60,437 bases of DNA from a virus. Its lineage: Duplodnaviria > Caudoviricetes. Below, one piece after another: positions 1 through 58,100 of this stretch. Location: IMG/VR virus record IMGVR_UViG_3300033148_004729, positions 1 to 60,437 of that record; one strand, given 5' to 3'. Position 1 is the first letter of the stretch; each line of letters opens with the position of its first letter. The notes under the pieces are model-generated. The model was not told the origin of the DNA. It saw only the letters and a list, made by a program, of their open reading frames with translations, and made no database searches. Position numbers and translations under genes: made by a program.

Positions 1-3000
1 TTCAGCACGAGGGCTGTAAGTGCCCCGGCCGGCGTGGCCCTTCGGAATCGCTTCGGCAAGGAGCCCGTCAAGTACGTTCCCCTGTCGCAGTTTTTCACTT
101 CCAGGCAGCGCAAGGACGGCGAGGACGATGATGCCATTTATGGCAGGCGTGCTCGACCACGTAAAAAGAAGAAGGGCGCCAAGGCGTCTGAGGGCCCCCA
201 GGGGCCCAAGCAGCCGGACACGGACGATGAGACCCGCAGGACGAAGAAGAGTCCCACAGAGGCCGTAGAGGCTCAGGATGGGGTATTCCTGACCGAGCCG
301 CTCGTTGAGGGGAAGATTTGCTGGATGAAGGGATGTTCCAGCCCGGCCACGAAGCAGATTGTGTGGGCTGATGGTCGCGCCATCTTTCCCGTCTGCGATG
401 CCTGCGTCGAGGCCGGCAAGAAGTACCTCAAGAAGAAGAACGGAAAGTGGGCCGAGATCGTTGCTGTCCAGTCCATCAAGGAGGCTGGAAGTGGGCAACC
501 TGTTGCCCACCTCGACGAGTCGGCGGCGCACGTCAAGTCCATCGCCTTGATGCGGTGGCTCTCCAGAGCGGCCAAGGAGCTTCGAGCCGACCAGCATATC
601 TACGTCGTCGGCGGTGCGGTCAGAAACTTCGTCATCGACAAGCCCATCAAGGACGTCGATGTGGTGCTCGACGCCGTGGCCCTCGGGCGCGGGCGCGACT
701 CGGCGTGGTTCGCCAAGCAGCTTCAGAAGCGCATCGGCGCCAGGTCGAAACTGGCAACCAACCAGTACGGGGTGGCCATCCTGACCGTCTCGGGCGACTG
801 GGAGGTCGATGGTCACAACCTCAAGGGCGAGGTCATCGAGATCGCCAACGCCAGGAGCGAGAGCTACGGCGGCGAGGTCGGCAAGGGGTACAAGCCCTCG
901 GACGTGCAGGTGGCGCCCATCGAGAAGGACGTCAAGCGGCGGGAGTTCACGTTCAACTGCATGGGCGGTGACACCCTCATCCCGACCGAGATGGGTATCC
1001 TCCGGATTGACAAGATCGCCGACCGGACCGATGGGGATCGACAATCCATCGAACTTCGGGTCGCCGGGCAGGACGGTCCGGCTGTTGCCGCCGGGTGGCA
1101 GTATAGTGGTCATACCGACACGCTTCGGGTCAAGACTGAGTGGGGGCACACATTCACCTGTACCTATCATCACCCGGTCTTGGTGCTGCGGGGTCACGAG
1201 CACGAATGGGTTCAGGCTGATCAACTCGAAGATAGTGACTTGCTCTGTGTCCCAGTGCGTCAGATGGTGCGCCAGGCCCCGTTGACACTTGACTTGTCCG
1301 ATCCGGTGCCGCCGAAACATGGTCGCCTCAAGGAGATCCGGAAGCCAGAGGTGATGACCCCGGAGCTTGCCTACGTCCTCGGATGTCTTGTGGCCGAAGG
1401 GTCCAACACGGCGAAGAGGGTGTCGTTCAGTAATTCGGACAACGCTTTCATCGCTCGCTACGCCGAGTGCTTTCAGGCTACGTTTGGGTTTGCGCCATCG
1501 CGAAATCAAGTGGTTGCAGAGGGCGACGTCCGGGTGCTGGATGGTGTCGAGTTTCGAGCGACTCGTGACGGGTTCGACATTTACGCGGACAGTCGGACCC
1601 TGGTGGGTTGGTTCGATGAGCTTGGGTTGTACTGTGGTGGCGCATGGGGCGGGAAGTCAGCCTCTCATCACAAGATAGTGCCGTGGTCGATTCTGGAGGC
1701 TGACGAGAAGAGTCAGGCTGCGTTCCTGGCCGCTTACCTGGAGGGTGACGGGTCGATCAGGCCGGACTCGGGGCGCATCACTTACTGTTCCGTTTCGCCG
1801 CATATCCGTCAGCAATTACAGGTACTCCTGGGTGCCCATGGGATACTGAGCAAGGTCAAGGGTCGATTCGTCTACGTCAATGCCGTGGATTCGGCGAAGC
1901 TGTGGTCGAAGATCGAAGCGTGGATGGTTACCAAGCGGTTCGACTACGACGGCGTGAGCTTCAAGTCGCGCAATCGTTACGGCGTCCAAAATGAGCATCT
2001 GGCGGGGTGGTTGAAGGGGCGGCGCGTCAGCGTGGGAAACAACACCGGGGCATCCATCTTTCGAACCGACGATGGTGACGAGGTGTCGCTGGCCGGGATG
2101 ACCGAAGCTCTTCGGCGTCCAAAGCGAATCCTTCACGATTCCGTGGCTCGTGGGGACTACGACACGTTCATGGTGGGGCTCAAGATGGTCAGCCCGACCG
2201 AGTACGCCAAAGTTCAACGGCTCCTTGATCTGGAATACCAGTATGTCGAGGTGGCCTCCGTGGAGAACGCAGGACAGCAGGACGTGTACGACTTGTCCAT
2301 GCACGAGGGAGTCGAGCCAGCTTTTGTAGCCAACGGGGTAATCGTCCACAATACGCTCATGTGGCGGCTGGCCGACCTGGCCAAGGGCCCCGACAAGGCC
2401 GAGATCATCGATCTGGCCGGCTGCGGCCTGAAAGACCTCAAGGCCAGGACCATGAGGTGTCCGTCGGACCCGGACAAGACCTTCTCGGACGACCCCACAA
2501 GGATGCTTCGGGCTATCAAGTTCATGAACAAGTACGGGTTCAAGATCAGCCCGGACACCGAGGCGTCCATCCGGCGCAACGCCAGCAAGCTTCGTAACGC
2601 CCCCTCGGCGGCCATCGCGAAGCTTCTCGTCGACGTCATCTTGAAGGAGCCGCGGACAGCGAAGAAGGCTCTCGGCGAGATGAAGCGGCTCGGGCTCCTC
2701 GACGTGGTGGCGCAGATGGCCCAGGACGACGCATCGTTTCGGGCGACCTTGAGCGGCTGGGCCAACGACCAGCGGGTGGCGCTCCTCTTCCACCTGCTCG
2801 ACCTGGGGCTCCCTCTCAAGACGAAGCTCGGGGCCTTCGAGCCAGCCGAGCAGAAGCGTATCCGGGTCGTGACGGCCACGATGCCGGATGCCGAGGCCTC
2901 AGAATACCTGGCTGCGCTCAAACAGCCTGGTCGGGCGTGGAAGGACAAGCTCTTCTTCGCGGCCATGGCGGCCGACTTGGGCGCAACGGGGAAGGGCATC

Positions 3001-3702
3001 GGTAAATTGGCGCAGCGCGTCAATGGCATTGCCAGGGACGCCATGCTGTCGGACCCCAAGCTCGTGGGCTCGCCAGAGAAGCTCAAGCGCATCATCCGGG
3101 ACGCCATCAAGGACTCGGGAGCCCGTTTTGAGGCCAAGACCCGCAAGTGCGAGTTCTGCCAGAGCCCGGCGACCCACGCCGTGCGAGCCCAGCCGACCGG
3201 CCTTGACGTGTGCGACGAGCACCTGAAGAGGGCTAAGGCACGACTTCGTAAGATGGGGTTCAGGGACTCGCGGATCTCGTCGCATAGGATGGCCACGGTC
3301 TACGGCGAGAGTCGCGAGAGGAGCAACTGCGACTTTGGCAGTAGCGCCTACTACGAATTCGTCAAGAAGAACCAATGCTTTAGGACCAGGGAGTTCGAGG
3401 AGTTCGTCACCGACCACAACAAGGCCGGTCGAGACAGCGGTGAGCTTCAGGACATCGCCATGCACGAGGTCGAACGCCTGGCGCGGGAGTTTGCGAAGAA
3501 GGTCGAGGGCATGACGACCACGGCGAACATCGCCACAACGCCGGTTCCGGTCGGCGCCGGGGATGGCCGCAAGTTCCTCGACTTCGGTCCTGGTCATCCA
3601 TTCCATGGGCGCGATTTCGGTGAGCCGAAGAAGAAGCGGAAGCGGAAGAAGAAGCGCCAGGGCTTGTCGCAACGGCTCTCTTACCTGCTTACCATCCCGT
3701 AG
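1..3702 (+). CDS. cca: CCA-adding tRNA nucleotidyltransferase (class II, PolyA_pol family) with an intein and N-/C-terminal Zn-finger-like extensions; frame open to the window edge, so the true start may lie upstream
   Basis: YVVGGAVRNF...PIKDVD (motif A), IEIANARSESY, DVKRREFTFN (RRDFTxN-like), GLKDL, FSDDPTRMLRAIKF; no stop codon in frame between positions 1 and 34. Confidence 0.9.
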   Translation, partial: FSTRAVSAPAGVALRNRFGKEPVKYVPLSQFFTSRQRKDGEDDDAIYGRRARPRKKKKGAKASEGPQGPKQPDTDDETRRTKKSPTEAVEAQDGVFLTEPLVEGKICWMKGCSSPATKQIVWADGRAIFPVCDACVEAGKKYLKKKNGKWAEIVAVQSIKEAGSGQPVAHLDESAAHVKSIALMRWLSRAAKELRADQHIYVVGGAVRNFVIDKPIKDVDVVLDAVALGRGRDSAWFAKQLQKRIGARSKLATNQYGVAILTVSGDWEVDGHNLKGEVIEIANARSESYGGEVGKGYKPSDVQVAPIEKDVKRREFTFNCMGGDTLIPTEMGILRIDKIADRTDGDRQSIELRVAGQDGPAVAAGWQYSGHTDTLRVKTEWGHTFTCTYHHPVLVLRGHEHEWVQADQLEDSDLLCVPVRQMVRQAPLTLDLSDPVPPKHGRLKEIRKPEVMTPELAYVLGCLVAEGSNTAKRVSFSNSDNAFIARYAECFQATFGFAPSRNQVVAEGDVRVLDGVEFRATRDGFDIYADSRTLVGWFDELGLYCGGAWGGKSASHHKIVPWSILEADEKSQAAFLAAYLEGDGSIRPDSGRITYCSVSPHIRQQLQVLLGAHGILSKVKGRFVYVNAVDSAKLWSKIEAWMVTKRFDYDGVSFKSRNRYGVQNEHLAGWLKGRRVSVGNNTGASIFRTDDGDEVSLAGMTEALRRPKRILHDSVARGDYDTFMVGLKMVSPTEYAKVQRLLDLEYQYVEVASVENAGQQDVYDLSMHEGVEPAFVANGVIVHNTLMWRLADLAKGPDKAEIIDLAGCGLKDLKARTMRCPSDPDKTFSDDPTRMLRAIKFMNKYGFKISPDTEASIRRNASKLRNAPSAAIAKLLVDVILKEPRTAKKALGEMKRLGLLDVVAQMAQDDASFRATLSGWANDQRVALLFHLLDLGLPLKTKLGAFEPAEQKRIRVVTATMPDAEASEYLAALKQPGRAWKDKLFFAAMAADLGATGKGIGKLAQRVNGIARDAMLSDPKLVGSPEKLKRIIRDAIKDSGARFEAKTRKCEFCQSPATHAVRAQPTGLDVCDEHLKRAKARLRKMGFRDSRISSHRMATVYGESRERSNCDFGSSAYYEFVKKNQCFRTREFEEFVTDHNKAGRDSGELQDIAMHEVERLAREFAKKVEGMTTTANIATTPVPVGAGDGRKFLDFGPGHPFHGRDFGEPKKKRKRKKKRQGLSQRLSYLLTIP
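958..2352 (+). mobile_element. Intein (465 aa) with LAGLIDADG homing endonuclease
   Basis: Starts CMGGDTLI, block B FTCTYHHPVL, LAYVLGCLVAEG and FLAAYLEGDG motifs, VYDLS, ends VANGVIVHN followed by T(+1); removal restores RREFTFN-TLM. Confidence 0.95.
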
Positions 3703-37207: not shown

Positions 37208-37524
37208 GGGAAGCAGAGGCGGTTGCTGGTCTCGAAGAGGCTTGCGACTTCGAGGAACAGCTCAAGGAGCGGTTTGATGTTGTGGCCGCTCAGACCGGGC
37301 TTCGCTCTGGTTTTGTTGATGCGCCACTGGCCATTCGGGCGTTGGAGCAGATGATTTTTGGTGCGAAGAAGGAAGAGGCCTATCTCAAGCGGCTCGTCAA
37401 GACCGGCGTTGGTACGGTGTGGGGTGGTCAGGGTGAGAGCAAAGTAACGAAGACATGGGTTATCGCAAGGGACTACCTCCGATCCCTCGAAGACCTGTAT
37501 GCTCTGGCTCAAGCAAAGGTGTGA
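37204..37524 (+). CDS. Hypothetical protein
   Basis: ATGA overlap with the upstream gene. Confidence 0.55.
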   Translation: MREAEAVAGLEEACDFEEQLKERFDVVAAQTGLRSGFVDAPLAIRALEQMIFGAKKEEAYLKRLVKTGVGTVWGGQGESKVTKTWVIARDYLRSLEDLYALAQAKV

Positions 37525-37536
37525 GAGGAGAGGACA

Positions 37537-38124
37537 ATGGGCGGATTGGCGAAGCAGCTTCGTAGCATCCTGAGCGAGGGACAAGAGATTGACGACGATG
37601 AGCTTGTGGAGCGTCTCGCTTCGCTCAACCTCAAGCTGTCTGGTCCGCTCGCCAAGATGCCTTCCTACCTGAAGGTCATCAACGACGAGTTGGGGCAGGC
37701 CGACTACTCTCTTCAGCTTCTTGCCAAGGGCGAGAAGTACGCGCCGCAGAAGGGCAATCTCATCGCGGCCCTCAGGAAGATCCAGCAGACGACGCGCGTG
37801 GCGCTCAGGCGCGTCGAGAAGGTCGAGAGCATCGAGGACGATGGCGACCTACTCGACGAATCAGCCATCGCTGGTTTGACCAACGCGCAGCGTCGTGCGT
37901 TGCCGAATGGGTTCGATCTGGCTGTGTTCATCGAGAACGCAGAGCATGATTTGAACCAGATACGTTCTGGTCTTCAAGGTTTCGTGAAGGTACAGGAGGG
38001 GGATGCTCGTAGTCGTTGGAAGCTCGCCGGACGTGTCATGAGTGGGCTTGCTTCTCTCCAGGGGGAATCGAAGCGGTACTACAACAAGGTGGGTCACAGC
38101 TTCGATAAGATGCCGAAGGAGTAG
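37537..38124 (+). CDS. Putative capsid-internal protein
   Basis: Leader MGGLAKQLRSILSE; internal LLDE. Confidence 0.55.
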   Translation: MGGLAKQLRSILSEGQEIDDDELVERLASLNLKLSGPLAKMPSYLKVINDELGQADYSLQLLAKGEKYAPQKGNLIAALRKIQQTTRVALRRVEKVESIEDDGDLLDESAIAGLTNAQRRALPNGFDLAVFIENAEHDLNQIRSGLQGFVKVQEGDARSRWKLAGRVMSGLASLQGESKRYYNKVGHSFDKMPKE

Positions 38125-52379: not shown

Positions 52380-53333
52380 TTACGCTGCTTTCTTCTGGGG
52401 CTCTTCGTTGGCCACGTAGCCGCCTCTTTCGGCGGCCTTCCGGAGCCACGTCACGGCCTTCTTTGCCTTGCTGGCGGCCTTGTAGAAGTACCGTTGGTCG
52501 TCTTCGAGGGCTCCCAGCCAGTGGCCGAGGTACTCAGCGTGCTGGCAGCGTCCATCAAGCTGGAACTCGGCCCCGAGGAACGCGGCCGTCAACTCGGCGA
52601 CAAGCTCCTCTTCGGCGTAGGCCTCCTTGCCGACGATGGTTCGGGCGCCGATGCCTCGTGCGAGTCGACTTTTGTGGCCGGTTGCGTGCCCGTACTCGTG
52701 CAGGTGCGTCAAGTAGAACTCCTCGATGGCTCTGTAGAGCTTCGCGGGTGGGATCCGAACTTCATCGATCAGGGGCACGTAGCACGCCTTGTCGCCGCCG
52801 TACTTGAGCCCGAAGCTGCTGCCCTCTTGTGCGCATGCGAGGAACCGCTCGACCCTGGCGTCACGTTCGTGCTCGGGAAGCTCTTCGGGGAGGTGTTTGA
52901 TGTACCTTGTGGGTTCCACTGTCGTTTGCTCGACGTTGTAGACGACCTGGGCACCGGACATCCAGAAGCGCACCACCTTGGGGTCGCCGTTGTTGTCGAG
53001 GACCGCCTGACCGTCCTTGTCGGTCTTGAGTCGCTCATCGGGGCGGAACCAGATTACGGCTCGACCGTTGTCCCACTCGTCTTGTTTGACATGGCCACCA
53101 AGGGCCTGGGCTTGCTTCCACGTCAGCCAGAGGGGATAGCTGTATTCCTTCACCGACTGGAGCGCGCCCAGGTACAGCGCGTTGACGCCGTTGTAGACGC
53201 GGCCTGTCTTTGCGTTCCGTTGGGCCCCGAGGGTCTGCCAGGGCTTCGCCCATGGCGCTACGCCTGCCTTGATGCTCTCCAGCAGGGTTTCCGCCTGGGC
53301 CTCGTAAGCATCCTGTGTTTTTGCCTTCATCAT
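52380..53333 (-). CDS. ardC: ArdC-family antirestriction protein (ssDNA-binding domain plus zincin-like domain)
   Basis: PW.KPW, N..TGR.Y.GVN.L.L, WLTWKQA..LGG.V, VYNVEQ, A.Y.P..D.V..P, HEYGHATGH.SRL.R, YA.EELVAEL.AAFL. Confidence 0.92.
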   Translation of the reverse strand: MMKAKTQDAYEAQAETLLESIKAGVAPWAKPWQTLGAQRNAKTGRVYNGVNALYLGALQSVKEYSYPLWLTWKQAQALGGHVKQDEWDNGRAVIWFRPDERLKTDKDGQAVLDNNGDPKVVRFWMSGAQVVYNVEQTTVEPTRYIKHLPEELPEHERDARVERFLACAQEGSSFGLKYGGDKACYVPLIDEVRIPPAKLYRAIEEFYLTHLHEYGHATGHKSRLARGIGARTIVGKEAYAEEELVAELTAAFLGAEFQLDGRCQHAEYLGHWLGALEDDQRYFYKAASKAKKAVTWLRKAAERGGYVANEEPQKKAA

Positions 53334-53357
53334 AACGCCCTCCCTGGTTGCATTACC

Positions 53358-53386
53358 AGTGTGGTCACATGGGATGCGTCTGTCAA
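53358..53386 (-). promoter_or_regulatory. Promoter of the TTGACAGACG class
   Basis: TTGACAGACGC...CACACT, 17-nt spacer. Confidence 0.6.
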
Positions 53387-53548
53387 GGCTTGCTCTGGTC
53401 AATCCGGTGCTTATGTTGAAGGTAATGGAGGTCGAGGATGCCTCCCTCAGCATCTACAAACTCGGTGAGGGTTGAGGAGGTGCTTGGGGGCTGAGAGAGC
53501 CGTGTGATAGATTCATATTTCGTAGGCGGCTCAAGATGGGAGCATGGG

Positions 53549-54799
53549 ATGAGTCTATCCAGTCAGCTTGATGATGCCCTTGCCGAATGGGCAATGGCGA
53601 AGCCCGGAGAGAAGCGTGAGCGTAAGGACGGGTACATCTGGCAGAAGCAGCGAAGCGGAGCGTGGAAGCGCCTCCACAAAGCCGCTGGCCGCAAAGCTGG
53701 GGCCGAGGAGGGTGCCGCCGTCGAGGCTGCCAGCAAGGCCATGAACGCCAAGGACGCGCCGGTGCCGAAGGGGCGCATCTGGATTGACCATGTTCCGGGG
53801 CTTCCGAACGACACCCAGAAGGCTCACATCGACACGGAGACCGGCGACTACAAGCCGGAGCGCAAGGCTCTCCACAGGAAGATCATCGAGGGCTTCCTGG
53901 CTGGGAATATGGTCAAGGGGGAGTTCGTTCCTGCTCAGGTTGTACCTGAAGGTCATCAGCCTGAGACACTGTTCATGATGGGCACTACGGCTTCGGGTAA
54001 GAGCAGCGCACGCAGAGAGGTCGATCCGGACCCGTTCAAGAAGTTCGGTGTTGTCGAGGTCGATCCGGATGCCATCAAAGCGATGCTTCCGGAGTACCAA
54101 AAGTCGATTTCCATGTCGGCTCGGGACGCTGCGAAGATCACTCATGAGGAGTCCTCTGACATCGCCGATCAGATCCGGAAGCTCGCCCTGGAGCAGAACA
54201 AGAACATCCTCGTTGACGGGACCGGCAAGACACTCGATACGGTCGAGAAGAAGATCAAAGAGGCGAAGGCCCGAGGTCATCACATTTCTGCGCTTATGCC
54301 GCACGTCCCGCTGGATCAGTGCAAGGAACGGGCGGACGACCGTGCTGAGAAGAAGGGGCGGTACGTGCCTCACTTCGTCATCGAAAAGTGCGCCGAGAAG
54401 GTGGGCAAGAACTTCATGGCGCTGAAGGACACGTTCGACACCTTCACTCTGTTCGACAACAGGACATTGGAAGGTGGCAAGAGGAAGCCACCAACACCAA
54501 TCATGAAGAAGCCGCCGGAGCCGCCGAAAGTCATTGATTCGGACTACTTCAAGCTGTTCTTGAGGGAGTCTGGCATCACGATGGAGTGGATCCGGTCCAA
54601 GGGGAATCTGATGACCGAACAAGATCAAGAGAAGATGGACTCACGAGAAGGTCCACCGCCGAAGAAGAAGCGCGCCGTCGACCCGGAAGCGTACGATGCG
54701 TGGTTCATCAATACCATCGAGGCCGAGAATGCGGCCAACGACGCGGAGCCCGCGGACTACAAGGTCGGCGAAGGTGTCGAGGAAGTCCTCGGTGACTAG
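53549..54799 (+). CDS. Zeta-toxin-family P-loop kinase
   Basis: MG..ASGKSS, VDPDAIK..LPEY, HEESS.IA, LVDGT, R...R....GRYVP, LFDN. Confidence 0.88.
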   Translation: MSLSSQLDDALAEWAMAKPGEKRERKDGYIWQKQRSGAWKRLHKAAGRKAGAEEGAAVEAASKAMNAKDAPVPKGRIWIDHVPGLPNDTQKAHIDTETGDYKPERKALHRKIIEGFLAGNMVKGEFVPAQVVPEGHQPETLFMMGTTASGKSSARREVDPDPFKKFGVVEVDPDAIKAMLPEYQKSISMSARDAAKITHEESSDIADQIRKLALEQNKNILVDGTGKTLDTVEKKIKEAKARGHHISALMPHVPLDQCKERADDRAEKKGRYVPHFVIEKCAEKVGKNFMALKDTFDTFTLFDNRTLEGGKRKPPTPIMKKPPEPPKVIDSDYFKLFLRESGITMEWIRSKGNLMTEQDQEKMDSREGPPPKKKRAVDPEAYDAWFINTIEAENAANDAEPADYKVGEGVEEVLGD

Positions 54800-55636: not shown

Positions 55637-55902
55637 GACGCCTCTTCACGCAGGAACCACGGAGCTTCGCTGACGGTGCCGTCGGGCTCGATGCGGAATC
55701 CTCCAGAGCGCCAGCACGTTTTGTCGTCAACGCTCTTGAACACGTCACCGATGACGGAGCCGTCGTCCTGCTCGTCGCCTACCTCGAAGAAGTATTCGGC
55801 GAATAGCACGGTCCACGCATTCGAGGAGCCGGTGCTCTCGCGGCACACGGCCTCCCACTTCCTGAGCGTGTCGTCTGCTGCTGCTGTGCATGACCATCCC
55901 AT
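55633..55902 (-). CDS. Hypothetical protein
   Basis: SD; YFFE.G.EQ.DG...G.V...F.I.PDG. Confidence 0.65.
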   Translation of the reverse strand: MGWSCTAAADDTLRKWEAVCRESTGSSNAWTVLFAEYFFEVGDEQDDGSVIGDVFKSVDDKTCWRSGGFRIEPDGTVSEAPWFLREEAS

Positions 55903-55920
55903 GACGCTCTCCTTCCTCGT

Positions 55921-56157
55921 TCACGATGAACTATTCAATCTCTCCTTGACCGTCTTCTCGTGGTAGCGGCGGTCAAGCTCATCGCGGCACGTTGTGCCGC
56001 AGGTGCCTTCGAGCTTGTCGAAGTTCTTTCCGCTCCAGAAGTGGAGCACGCAGTTCCAGCAAGCGACTTTGCCGCACACGCGACAGGTCCAGGGTTGGCC
56101 GCTGTGACCTTGTGAGGTCTGCGCCCTGCACCCAGCCTGTCTAGCGGATTTCGACAC
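55921..56157 (-). CDS. Cys-rich small protein
   Basis: CRVCG, CWNC, CGTTC; SD GGGAG before GTG. Confidence 0.55.
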   Translation of the reverse strand: MSKSARQAGCRAQTSQGHSGQPWTCRVCGKVACWNCVLHFWSGKNFDKLEGTCGTTCRDELDRRYHEKTVKERLNSSS

Positions 56158-56176
56158 GTTATCTCCCTGCACTTGG

Positions 56177-56237
56177 AATATAATCATGCAAAAAGCGTCT
56201 GTCAACCGCTTGACAGTGCGCCATTGGTGGATAAGTT
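56177..56237. promoter_or_regulatory. Back-to-back divergent promoters
   Basis: Minus strand: TTGACAGACGC with TATATT (17-nt spacer, 56177-56205). Plus strand: TTGACA-16-TAAGTT (56210-56237). Confidence 0.7.
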
Positions 56238-56242
56238 TGAGT

Positions 56243-56585
56243 TGGAGGCGGGAGCCTCTGGGAAGGAAAGTGGTTCTAGTTCGAGTCTGGGTCGCGGTTT
56301 CTGACCCTTCGTAAGTCGGGCGACGGCTCGCAGTGAGGTCAGAGCGGTGGTGGCGCCGCCATCGTGTCAGAGGCCGCAGACCTGGGTTCGAGCTTCGAAA
56401 AGGATAGACGGTTCCCTTTCCCCTCGCCCGGCTGTAGACCGGGTGGCACAAAACCGAGGGGTGCGTTGCCGGGAGGTTCAATTCCTTGGGGGACCACTGA
56501 TTGGCTTCAAATTGTTGACTGTGGATAGGCGACAGGACTGGCTCCTGTTCGCCTTATCGTCGCATGGCAGTTGACATCAGAGGCC
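56243..56585 (+). ncRNA. Candidate large structured non-coding RNA
   Basis: GNRA hairpin at 56244-56259; 28-bp rod 56278-56305/56366-56394 with 7 G-U pairs; tRNA-like domain; 3' rod at 56513-56576. Confidence 0.65.
56410..56496 (+). tRNA. Atypical tRNA-Tyr(GTA)-like element lacking a canonical D arm; CCA not encoded
   Basis: Acceptor GGTTCCC/GGGGACC plus A73; anticodon arm CCCGG-CTGTAGA-CCGGG; T arm GAGG-TTCAATT-CCTT; long variable region. Confidence 0.6.
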
Positions 56586-56612
56586 GGTGTGGTCGGAAAG
56601 AACAGGGGCGTC

Positions 56613-58100
56613 ATGCCAACGACACCGAGGAAGAAGAAGGGCTCTGCTTTGCCCGCCTTCGTGGTGGACAAGAAGGGGCTAGAGAAGATCATGGCGAGGC
56701 GCGGAAAGCACTTCGCTGTCATCGAGCTTGTACAAAACTCGCTCGACGAGGATGTGACCAAGGTCGATGTCGTTTTGGAGTCCCACGGTAAGCGCGGTCG
56801 ACACACCCTCCGAGTGACTGACGATTCGCCTGAGGGGTTCGCTGACATCCGGCACGCCTATACCCTCTTCGCCGAGTCCAACAAGAAGGCGGACCCGACG
56901 AAAATGGGCAGGTTCAACCTTGGGGAGAAGCTCGTGGTGGCAGCCTGTGACAAGGCAACAATCACGACCACCTCGGGGTGCGTCAAGTTCGATGGCGATG
57001 GGCGCGTGAACGGTCGGAAGAAGACCAAGGTCGGTTCCGTCTTCGAGGGCGTCATCAGGATGACTCGTGAGGAGGCGAAGAAGACGTCCGAGGTCTCTAA
57101 ACAGGTGCTCGTACCCGAAGGGGTCACGTTGACCTTCAACGGTGAGGTCATCGTTTCCAGGCAACCTGTTGCCCGGTTTGAGGCAATTCTCCCAACGGAG
57201 ATTGCTGATGACGAGGGTTACCTGCGACCGACCAAGCGCAAGACGACCGTCAGTGTCTATGAGCCTTGCGATGGAGAGGTCCCGGCCCTGTATGAGGTGG
57301 CGCTTCCAGTCGTTGAGACGGGCGACCAGTGGCACATCAGCATTGGCCAGAAAGTGCCGCTGAACATGGACCGGGACAATGTGACCCCGGCGTTTCTTCG
57401 GCGCGTGCGAACTCTGGTTCTCAACGAGATGGTCGACAAGCTGCCAGAGGACGACGCTGCGGCCTCCTGGGTCGGGGAGGCCCTCGGGGACCCCGGCGTA
57501 TCCAACGAGGCCGTGGGTGCTGTTCTGACGAAACGACATGGGGAGAAGCGGGTCATCAGGGATCCGTCGGACCCCGAGGCCAACAACCTGGCAGTGAGCG
57601 AGGGCTATTCCATCATCGAATCCCGCAGCTACACGAAGGGGCAGTGGGAGACCATCAGGCGTTCTGGTGCAGCGAAGCCTGCCGGACAGGTGACACCGAG
57701 CCCGAAGCCATACGGACCTGACGGTCGTGAGCCCAAGGAGATCCCGCAGGAGGAGTGGACCAATGGCATGAATGAGTCGGTTGGCTACGTCAAGGCGCTC
57801 GCCAAGGTTCTCCTCGGGTGCTCCATTTCTGTTCGGATCGTTGATGACACGGAGTGGAGGTTCTCGGCCACGTACGGCAAGGGTCGTCTGACTCTGAACA
57901 AGGGGTGTCTCGGCGGCGGGTGGTTCGAACGCGGGCCGTCCGTGATCGTCCACGAGCTTCTCATCCACGAGTTCGCGCACCACTTCGAAAACAACCACTT
58001 GAGCAGCGGGTACCATGACGCCTGCTGCTCGCTCGGGGCGAAGCTCGTCCAGTTGGCGATGGATGATCCGGCCTTTTTCTTGAAGTGGTGGAAGTCATGA
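56613..58100 (+). CDS. GHKL (HSP90-like) ATPase fused to a C-terminal HExxH zincin-like domain
   Basis: ELVQNSLD, V.DDSPEGF, GRFNLGEK, GS.F; LLIHEFAHH....H. Confidence 0.8.
   Translation: MPTTPRKKKGSALPAFVVDKKGLEKIMARRGKHFAVIELVQNSLDEDVTKVDVVLESHGKRGRHTLRVTDDSPEGFADIRHAYTLFAESNKKADPTKMGRFNLGEKLVVAACDKATITTTSGCVKFDGDGRVNGRKKTKVGSVFEGVIRMTREEAKKTSEVSKQVLVPEGVTLTFNGEVIVSRQPVARFEAILPTEIADDEGYLRPTKRKTTVSVYEPCDGEVPALYEVALPVVETGDQWHISIGQKVPLNMDRDNVTPAFLRRVRTLVLNEMVDKLPEDDAAASWVGEALGDPGVSNEAVGAVLTKRHGEKRVIRDPSDPEANNLAVSEGYSIIESRSYTKGQWETIRRSGAAKPAGQVTPSPKPYGPDGREPKEIPQEEWTNGMNESVGYVKALAKVLLGCSISVRIVDDTEWRFSATYGKGRLTLNKGCLGGGWFERGPSVIVHELLIHEFAHHFENNHLSSGYHDACCSLGAKLVQLAMDDPAFFLKWWKS

Follow-up and report, generated by a model that had tools for sequence, protein, structure and literature searches.

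Few folds in biology are as strongly conserved as the cloverleaf of tRNA. In tmRNA, an internal domain is closed by a long-range helix, P2. The class II tRNA-Tyr(GUA) of bacteria and phages combines a G1-C72 first pair, discriminator A73 and a GUA anticodon in a standard anticodon arm with a TTCRATT-type T loop and a stem at the base of its long variable region; a D hairpin follows position 9, and its acceptor and T stems are arranged as 7/5. The (8/4) tRNAs or allo-tRNAs of bacteria and their phages, in the text description of Mukai et al. (2017; PMC5389517), have a 12-bp acceptor branch that is divided 8 + 4. Their variable arm is long, and so is the helix in the D-stem position, which belongs to a local D stem-loop made of a long stem and a tetraloop; they have Ser, His, Cys or Sec identity and occur in phage tRNA clusters. 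Finally, passages of Edelmann et al. (2024; PMC11551756) deal with D-arm-less mitochondrial tRNAs, such as tRNA-Ser(AGY), and with the engineered mini HisT, which lack the D hairpin, have a short connector between acceptor and anticodon stems, put nothing in the place of the D stem and adopt a Y-like shape.

The element described here occupies 87 nt at positions 56410-56496 (+) of a 60,437-bp virus record in IMG/VR (59% G+C, estimated to be 32% complete); hereafter, this whole stretch of DNA is called the window. The tRNA-Tyr-like features of the element can be read directly from the window sequence, and it is a real, conserved gene for a tyrosine-type tRNA of large phages. Its likeness to class II tRNA-Tyr extends to all the features named above except the D hairpin after position 9, which is missing, and the acceptor/T configuration, which is 8/4. 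Moreover, its variable-arm loop of 18-20 nt pairs with the 5′ region, and the Rfam model RF00005 scores it below the gathering score or not at all. The 8 + 4 acceptor branch, the long variable arm, the long helix in the D-stem position (6-7 bp here) and the occurrence in phage tRNA clusters are shared with the (8/4) tRNAs, but the element has Tyr identity, and the two strands of its helix in the D position lie on either side of the anticodon arm. This sets it apart from the (8/4) tRNAs as described in that text; 'irregular' and five-stem forms in the supplementary figures of PMC5389517 may bear on its novelty. Compared with the D-arm-less types, the element has a covarying helix of 6-7 bp, here called P2, whose partner strand comes from the variable region together with a GG-containing linker. 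The tRNA-like domain of tmRNA likewise consists of an acceptor, a short connector, a long-range helix closing an internal domain and a T arm, whereas the element has a true anticodon arm and no G3.U70 pair, tag reading frame or pseudoknot series. The element is a tRNA with a new core topology, a fold that is undescribed for bacterial or phage tRNAs. No bacterial or phage tRNA of this architecture was found described in the full-text literature outside the subscription journals, and the words 'phage' and 'pseudoknot' do not occur in a 2020 review of non-canonical tRNAs.

Anatomy of the element and its visibility to tRNA finders

The known family consists of three sequences: the window element, G001:299932-300018(-) and G006:45192-45280(-), with lengths of 87, 87 and 89 nt, respectively. 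G001 is a complete phage record of 572 kb with direct terminal repeats (100% complete), and G006 is a 101-kb (101,415-bp) phage record that is 45% complete. An earlier note on the window had read from its sequence an acceptor with G1-C72, a discriminator A, an anticodon arm with a CT-GTA-GA loop, a variable region of 28 nt, 10 nt in place of the D arm, the complementarity of CCCCTCG to CGAGGGG and a CTG after the 3′ end, and all of these are indeed present. The seven acceptor pairs that it listed also form: GGTTCCC (56410-56416) faces GGGGACC (56489-56495) in six Watson-Crick pairs plus T56413.G56492. It missed, however, an eighth pair, T56417-G56488, which is UG, UG and GC in the three sequences. 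Its covariation in the homologues makes this an 8/4 configuration of acceptor and T stems. Similarly, the T arm of the note was right as to its T loop (TTCAATT, 56477-56483) but not as to its outermost pair: the supposed 49-65 pair, G56472 with G56488, is G against G, and positions 49 and 65 are unpaired in all three copies. The T stem GAGG/CCTT thus has just four pairs, one of them G.U.

The anticodon stem of five G-C pairs (56427-56443) closes a 7-nt loop with U33, GTA and G37, and the anticodon and T stems are separated by the 28 nt at 56444-56471. On the 5′ side, just 10 nt (56417-56426) lead from the 7-bp acceptor strand to the anticodon stem. The same holds for all three copies, in none of which was a local D stem-loop found between positions 9 and 26. 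The exact complementarity noted above is that of CCCCTCG at 56420-56426 to CGAGGGG at 56455-61. CCA is encoded in none of the three copies, and in the window the discriminator A56496 is directly followed by CTG. Besides the 8/4 configuration, our analysis adds to the earlier reading a crossing helix, GGCA/TGCC, here called P3, which would give the element a pseudoknot core. The features are listed in Table 1.

Table 1. Features of the element in the window, with the pairing of each helix in the alignment of the three sequences
Feature	Position	Strand	Observation	Helix in the alignment
Acceptor 5′ strand, GGTTCCCT, 8 nt	56410..56417	+	pairs with 56488-56495; 8/8 pairs in 3/3 sequences	acceptor helix: 8 pairs, 7 changed on both sides; G1-C72 invariant
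UU linker (equivalent of positions 8-9)	56418..56419	+	invariant in 3/3 sequences	
P2 5′ strand CCCCTCG	56420..56426	+	pairs with 56455-56461; 20/21 cells paired	P2 (CCCCTCG/CGAGGGG): 7 pairs, 2 changed on both sides, one G-A cell
Anticodon arm CCCGG CTGTAGA CCGGG; GTA at 56434-56436	56427..56443	+	5/5 pairs in 3/3 sequences	anticodon stem: 5 pairs, 4 changed on both sides; 15/15 cells paired
P3 5′ strand GGCA, base of the variable arm	56445..56448	+	pairs with 56467-56470; 12/12 cells paired	P3 (GGCA/TGCC in the window): 4 pairs, 1 changed on both sides
A-rich linker CAAAAC within the variable-arm loop	56449..56454	+	A-rich, 6-8 nt in all three sequences	
P2 3′ strand CGAGGGG; proposed equivalent of the D-stem 5′ strand	56455..56461	+	pairs with 56420-56426	
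TGCGT linker after P2; proposed equivalent of the D loop	56462..56466	+	TGGAT in both homologues	
P3 3′ strand TGCC	56467..56470	+	pairs with 56445-56448	
T arm GAGG TTCAATT CCTT, 4-bp stem	56473..56487	+	4/4 pairs in 3/3 sequences	T stem: 4 pairs, 1 changed on both sides (3 types); outer G.U invariant
Acceptor 3′ strand, GGGGGACC	56488..56495	+	from the three-way alignment	
Discriminator A73, no encoded CCA	56496..56496	+	A invariant in 3/3 sequences	

Standard detectors pass over the element. With default settings ARAGORN found neither a tRNA nor a tmRNA in the window, and it called none of the three copies of the element. Rfam gave no match in the window at gathering score and no tRNA or tmRNA at E≤10 in the region 55900-56900, while RF00005 on its own gave no match at E≤0.01 on the window and G001 copies and 21.2 bits on the G006 copy, which is under its gathering score of 29 bits. 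The earlier note had proposed a relaxed ARAGORN run as a check. This proved uninformative: at ps80, 67 'genes' were called in the window, and a shifted 'tRNA-Val' fold at 56417-56495 that appeared among them was dismissed as noise, given that number of calls per window. The identities of a tmRNA and of a YrlA-type Y RNA were likewise unsupported by ARAGORN and Rfam. Furthermore, three T-loop-like motifs in the region do not represent a decayed tRNA array, since the two upstream GTTCGAG copies are the arms of one G.U-rich hairpin.

Considered singly, the window sequence is not convincing, and it is the two homologues that settle the reality of the element. In the minimum free energy fold of the single sequence the CCCCTCG/CGAGGGG helix is unused, and the z-score of -0.36 is no better than that of shuffles. 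A loose filter (T arm, adjacent 7-bp acceptor and anticodon arm) matched 3 of 300 simulated windows and gave 2 matches in the real window; this result is suggestive but, for a scan over many windows, not decisive. The second of the two matches, at about 37472-37557 (-), was taken as chance: it is rich in G.U pairs, its loop is TTCGAGG, and part of it lies within what seems to be coding sequence (gene 37537-38124). The silence of ARAGORN and Rfam on the window element, a single-sequence fold that equals shuffles and a loose filter that matches 1 in 100 random windows would all fit a decayed tRNA gene, a chance look-alike or a partial tRNA copy at a phage attachment site. However, a copy at an attachment site would come without a matching 5′ acceptor strand and would mirror a normal host tRNA. 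Here the 5′ acceptor strand is present and covaries, and an attP remnant was therefore set aside. Decay and chance are addressed by the covariation described below.

Homologues and covariation of the predicted pseudoknot core

A pattern running from loop to loop (CTGTAGA, a gap and GGTTCAATTCC) matched 69 viral loci. Six of these are ordinary tRNA-Tyr genes with the same loop, as called by ARAGORN, and one, L189, has the architecture of the window element and the identical length of 87 nt. A second pattern, derived from the conserved 3′ part of the element, gave 44 loci. When a two-sequence covariance model was run on 83 new loci, L340 scored 76.2 bits and the runner-up 18.8 bits. The two homologues score 106.9 and 76.2 bits (E-values of 1e-32 and 4e-22), and over the three copies the covariance-model E-values range from about 1e-22 to 1e-33. 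Because two homologues match the family covariance model, the window element is beyond chance. The best matches to this model outside the family were normal phage tRNA-Tyr genes, at 24-29 bits. Apart from the element, the host records share little: the ATPase encoded next to it in the window is unmatched in G001 and G006, and a baseplate protein of the window has a match in G001 at 29% identity. Judged from these comparisons, the three host phages are only distantly related.

The family model was searched over the pattern-selected loci and 16 whole records, and it had no match in 13 further whole phage records. Nor did it match any of 123 loci (43 viral, 80 metagenome) that hold relatives of the GHKL-type ATPase at 40-51% identity. 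In the 43 viral loci among them, ARAGORN found no tRNA upstream of the ATPase gene and a single tRNA, downstream of it, in L013, and blastn found nothing similar to the intergenic region of the window. Exact halves of the element had no viral matches, the pattern CTGTAGA..GGC.C.AAAA returned L189 again and nothing new (1 of 79 stretches), and blastn against 50,697 GenBank phage records gave partial T-arm matches only. A pattern scan of prokaryotes matched at least 120 loci, and no family member was among the 120 listed; bacteria may yet carry copies.

When the three sequences are aligned, standard pairs fill all but one of the 84 pair cells (83 of 84), and 15 of the 28 pairs are changed on both sides. 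None of 500 shuffles reached any of five pairing measures, and a control with slid partners was paired at 40-52%. The lone unpaired cell of P2 is the G-A in the G001 copy, whereas each of its two middle pairs occurs as three different Watson-Crick types; the fourth pair of P3 is AU, UA and CG across the three sequences. From the alignment alone, RNAalifold recovered all eight acceptor pairs along with P2 and the anticodon and T arms. The partner strand of P2 lies 28-30 nt downstream, past the anticodon arm, and per sequence the calculated contributions are -9.4 to -11.4 kcal/mol for P2 and -4 to -6.7 kcal/mol for P3. The central claim of the earlier note, that the D region pairs with the variable region, is borne out by these data: the pairing is kept through two-sided changes in two independent homologues, and both homologues are without the local D hairpin that would have spoken for a normal D arm. 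Since the P2 3′ strand lies inside the loop closed by P3, P2 and P3 together make a pseudoknot; the two helices, each scored separately, are predicted to form at the same time. Three diverged copies that retain this degree of pairing, with 15 compensatory pairs, are unattainable by decay or chance. In addition, a strict filter for D-arm-less genes found 5 real matches as opposed to none in 10 simulated copies of 3.77 Mb. A decayed gene, a chance look-alike or an attachment-site fragment is thus extremely improbable.

The residues G1-C72, A73, U33 and G34-U35-A36 are invariant in all three sequences, and with them the tRNA-Tyr identity elements (G1-C72, A73 and GUA) that had been claimed for the window copy. 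In the tyrosine identity set given by Giege and Eriani (2023; PMC9976931), A73 is shared by all domains, the first pair in bacteria is G1-C72, and the anticodon plays a major part. The anticodon loop is CUGUAGA in two copies and CUGUAAA in one, each with U33 and a purine at position 37, and the T loops, TTCAATT or TTCGATT, are of the TTCRA type and lie next to the acceptor 3′ strand. A tRNA-Tyr does not usually have the G37 that two copies show, although six normal phage tRNA-Tyr genes carry the same loop. One normal phage tRNA-Tyr, L128, has an anticodon arm identical to that of the window element and a D arm of GGGG-AAUGGU-CCCC. The linker that follows the G-rich 3′ strand of P2 reads UGGAU in both homologues, much like the D loops with UGG in such normal phage tRNA-Tyr genes, and may by analogy be the equivalent of the D loop, an equivalence that is weakened by the UGCGU of the window in place of the UGGAU of the homologues.

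Proposed fold, decoding role and alternatives

On the strength of these sequence comparisons, we consider it probable that the element is a working tRNA-Tyr(GUA) in which the D-stem 5′ strand and the D loop have been relocated into the loop of the variable arm. It would retain the 8-bp acceptor, the 4-bp T arm with its normal T loop, the standard anticodon arm and P3, on which the variable arm is built. The D stem would be replaced by P2 (6-7 bp), formed when the strand that immediately precedes the anticodon stem pairs inside the variable-arm loop. Like the 3′ strand of a D stem, the 5′ strand of P2 leads without interruption to the anticodon stem; P2 may stack on that stem, and the UGG-containing linker after P2 may act as D loop at the elbow. 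Put differently, the 5′ half of the D arm would now come after the anticodon arm in the chain, and the L-shape could persist with this changed connectivity. The transcript would presumably be trimmed by RNase P and a 3′ exonuclease and receive its CCA from a CCA-adding enzyme. A host TyrRS of the bacterial type could then charge the RNA via G1-C72, A73 and the GUA anticodon, and the charged RNA would decode UAY codons for the phage. Edelmann et al. (2024; PMC11551756) report an engineered D-arm-less tRNA that HisRS and EF-Tu accept, as does the E. coli ribosome. That such a tRNA works with the E. coli translation apparatus makes a decoding role plausible.

The setting of the two homologues supports this idea. 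In G006 the element lies within a tRNA array and on its strand, and ARAGORN on the whole record called 31 tRNAs for 19 amino acids, with Tyr alone missing, although in a record that is 45% complete a normal tRNA-Tyr could sit in the missing part. This gap is the strongest hint that the element simply serves these phages as their tRNA-Tyr. In G001 the element is located 490 nt from a tRNA-Leu(gag), and it shares its strand with all 41 tRNAs found by RF00005. This record also has a tRNA-Tyr(gta) called by ARAGORN, with C1-G72, C33 and a mismatched anticodon stem. With this second tRNA of Tyr anticodon, the element is not demonstrably the sole Tyr tRNA of G001. Another point against the reading as a working tRNA-Tyr is that the window is without any other tRNA gene by ARAGORN.

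Baseplate genes mark the window as a fragment from a large tailed phage. The element occupies an intergenic position there, in a divergent region of roughly 700 bp. No coding signal was found in the frames that overlap it: the overlapping minus-strand frame has a flat GC1/2/3 of 0.56/0.56/0.63, as compared with a GC3 of 0.74 in the adjacent small gene. This left neighbour (55921-56157 (-), 78 aa) encodes a small cysteine-rich, zinc-ribbon-like protein and is preceded by a Shine-Dalgarno sequence and by TTGACA-17-TATATT (56177-56205, -), a promoter close to consensus; no relatives of the protein, P0001, were found in viral or metagenome collections. To the right, 117 nt downstream of the element, lies the gene for the GHKL-type ATPase (56613-58100 (+)). 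A consensus promoter scan of the plus strand gave nothing ahead of the element, which likewise counts against that reading, and a candidate read by eye, TTGACA(56211)-16/17-TAAGTT, fails the criteria of that scan. Elsewhere in the window, at 52380-54799, an ArdC-like anti-restriction protein with ArdcN and zincin peptidase domains (-) is encoded beside a protein with a Zeta-toxin/AAA_33 domain (+).

Conceivably, the RNA could be tRNA-like and yet have a job outside translation, as a primer, a regulatory RNA or a signal for RNase P processing of a longer transcript. Immediately before the element, the window has a strongly structured stretch of 170 nt (56240-56409 (+); minimum free energy of -77.3 kcal/mol, z = -3.57), which forms a long hairpin rich in G.U pairs and hence specific to the plus strand, and the element precedes a protein gene by 117 nt with no tRNA array nearby. 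In addition, Mukai et al. (2017) mention, in the text of PMC5389517, irregular tRNAs that are charged yet unused in translation. However, no counterpart of the structured stretch was found next to the G001 and G006 copies, which sit among protein genes within tRNA arrays, and a strictly conserved anticodon loop together with the Tyr identity set would be unexpected in a processing signal. We therefore regard a non-translational job as quite unlikely.

A second alternative is a tRNA-Tyr look-alike that takes part in an arms race, instead of decoding or in addition to it, either as a decoy for host nucleases that deplete tRNA-Tyr or as a replacement tRNA with a rewired core that escapes them. 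Passages of Azam et al. (2024; PMC11555353) report that PtuAB of retron-Eco7 depletes tRNA-Tyr and that the tRNA-Tyr of phage T5 rescues infection, and they cite phage tRNAs with altered anticodon loops that are predicted to resist anticodon nucleases. The G37 in place of A37 in two of the three copies would agree with such a role, for which the second Tyr-anticodon tRNA of G001 leaves room. On the other hand, we observed no conserved link to a defence or anti-defence gene, none of the 123 loci with relatives of the GHKL-type ATPase carries the element, and in G006 the element fills the single gap of the tRNA set. In a pure decoy, moreover, the invariant G1-C72 and A73 and a fully conserved acceptor/T branch would be needless. 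The decoy or mimic proposed in the earlier note found no direct evidence, and the tRNA-array setting together with the Tyr gap of G006 points to ordinary decoding. Altogether an arms-race role appears unlikely, but its escape-variant form is compatible with a working tRNA-Tyr and is here inseparable from it. In this respect the element bears on the question of whether phages reshape their tRNAs to evade tRNA-targeting immunity.

The earlier note had also linked the element with a CCA enzyme of the phage in a tRNA-repair or decoy system. ORF 34-3702 (+) does encode a class II nucleotidyltransferase, with a PolyA_pol head domain that is split by an intein. The claim of a CCA enzyme thus stands at the level of the family, but all matches to the CCA and PcnB equivalogs are below the curated cut-offs. 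The intein has a LAGLIDADG domain (about residues 309-783), and the frame may run off the window start. The proposed partnership gained no specific support: the nucleotidyltransferase gene is 52 kb from the element, and any tRNA gene without an encoded CCA requires a CCA-adding activity, which we count against a special role for this enzyme. The G006 record, which is 45% complete, yielded no nucleotidyltransferase gene.

If the D stem of a working tRNA-Tyr is built across the anticodon arm, bacterial viruses would have a natural and conserved tRNA that achieves its fold in a new way. Phage tRNA sets would then be undercounted by the standard tRNA finders, and a natural molecule would show which links within the core of a tRNA the synthetase, EF-Tu, RNase P and the ribosome depend on. 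It might possibly also provide orthogonal scaffolds for genetic-code engineering.

Arg-type elements and other tRNA genes of these phages

The strict filter required a 7-bp acceptor and a T arm, with 2-12 nt between the acceptor strand and the start of the anticodon arm and with at least 14 nt in the variable region. Its five distinct matches, in 3.83 Mb of sequence, consist of the three members of the Tyr family and two genes with Arg anticodons inside phage tRNA arrays. These are L170:2534-2608(-), with anticodon UCU, and G006:37075-37151(-) (= L487:2576-2652 (-)), with anticodon UCG. [quoted passage not shown] ARAGORN misses both genes, and RF00005 scores them at 37.4 bits (UCU) and 27.6 bits (UCG); in its alignment of the UCU gene the D arm of the model is deleted and a 16-nt insert is placed in the variable region. 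The anticodons UCU and UCG are absent from the ARAGORN tRNAs of the scanned sequence. A 7-bp helix like P2 has 5 of its 7 positions paired in the Arg-type genes, at different places in each. It is quite possible, though we put this forward tentatively, that large phages carry a class of 'core-permuted' tRNAs (class II for Tyr, class I for Arg), with the D-stem 5′ strand and the D loop placed after the anticodon arm and the L-shape kept by another chain path, that would function in translation and might be selected as invisible to host enzymes that recognise the D arm or the elbow, for example defence nucleases.

Several further tRNA genes in these records were unusual. G001 (L275, L277 and L281) has tRNAs with the anticodons CTA and TCA, which would read stop codons and hint at recoding, and the G006 array contains an ARAGORN tRNA with a four-base anticodon (cagg) at L488:6836-6911 (-). 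A tRNA-Leu usually has a long variable arm. The tRNA-Leu genes (TAG, CAA and TAA) that adjoin the Tyr element in G001 and G006, at L278:5417-5689 (-) and L487:8692-10226 (-), are 75-77 nt by ARAGORN and thus too short for such an arm. Finally, ARAGORN missed a tRNA-like gene of class II at L340:1381-1462 (-), in which the loop CTCGAAA presents the Ser anticodon CGA; this gene scores 30.3 bits with RF00005 and 15 bits with the Tyr family model.
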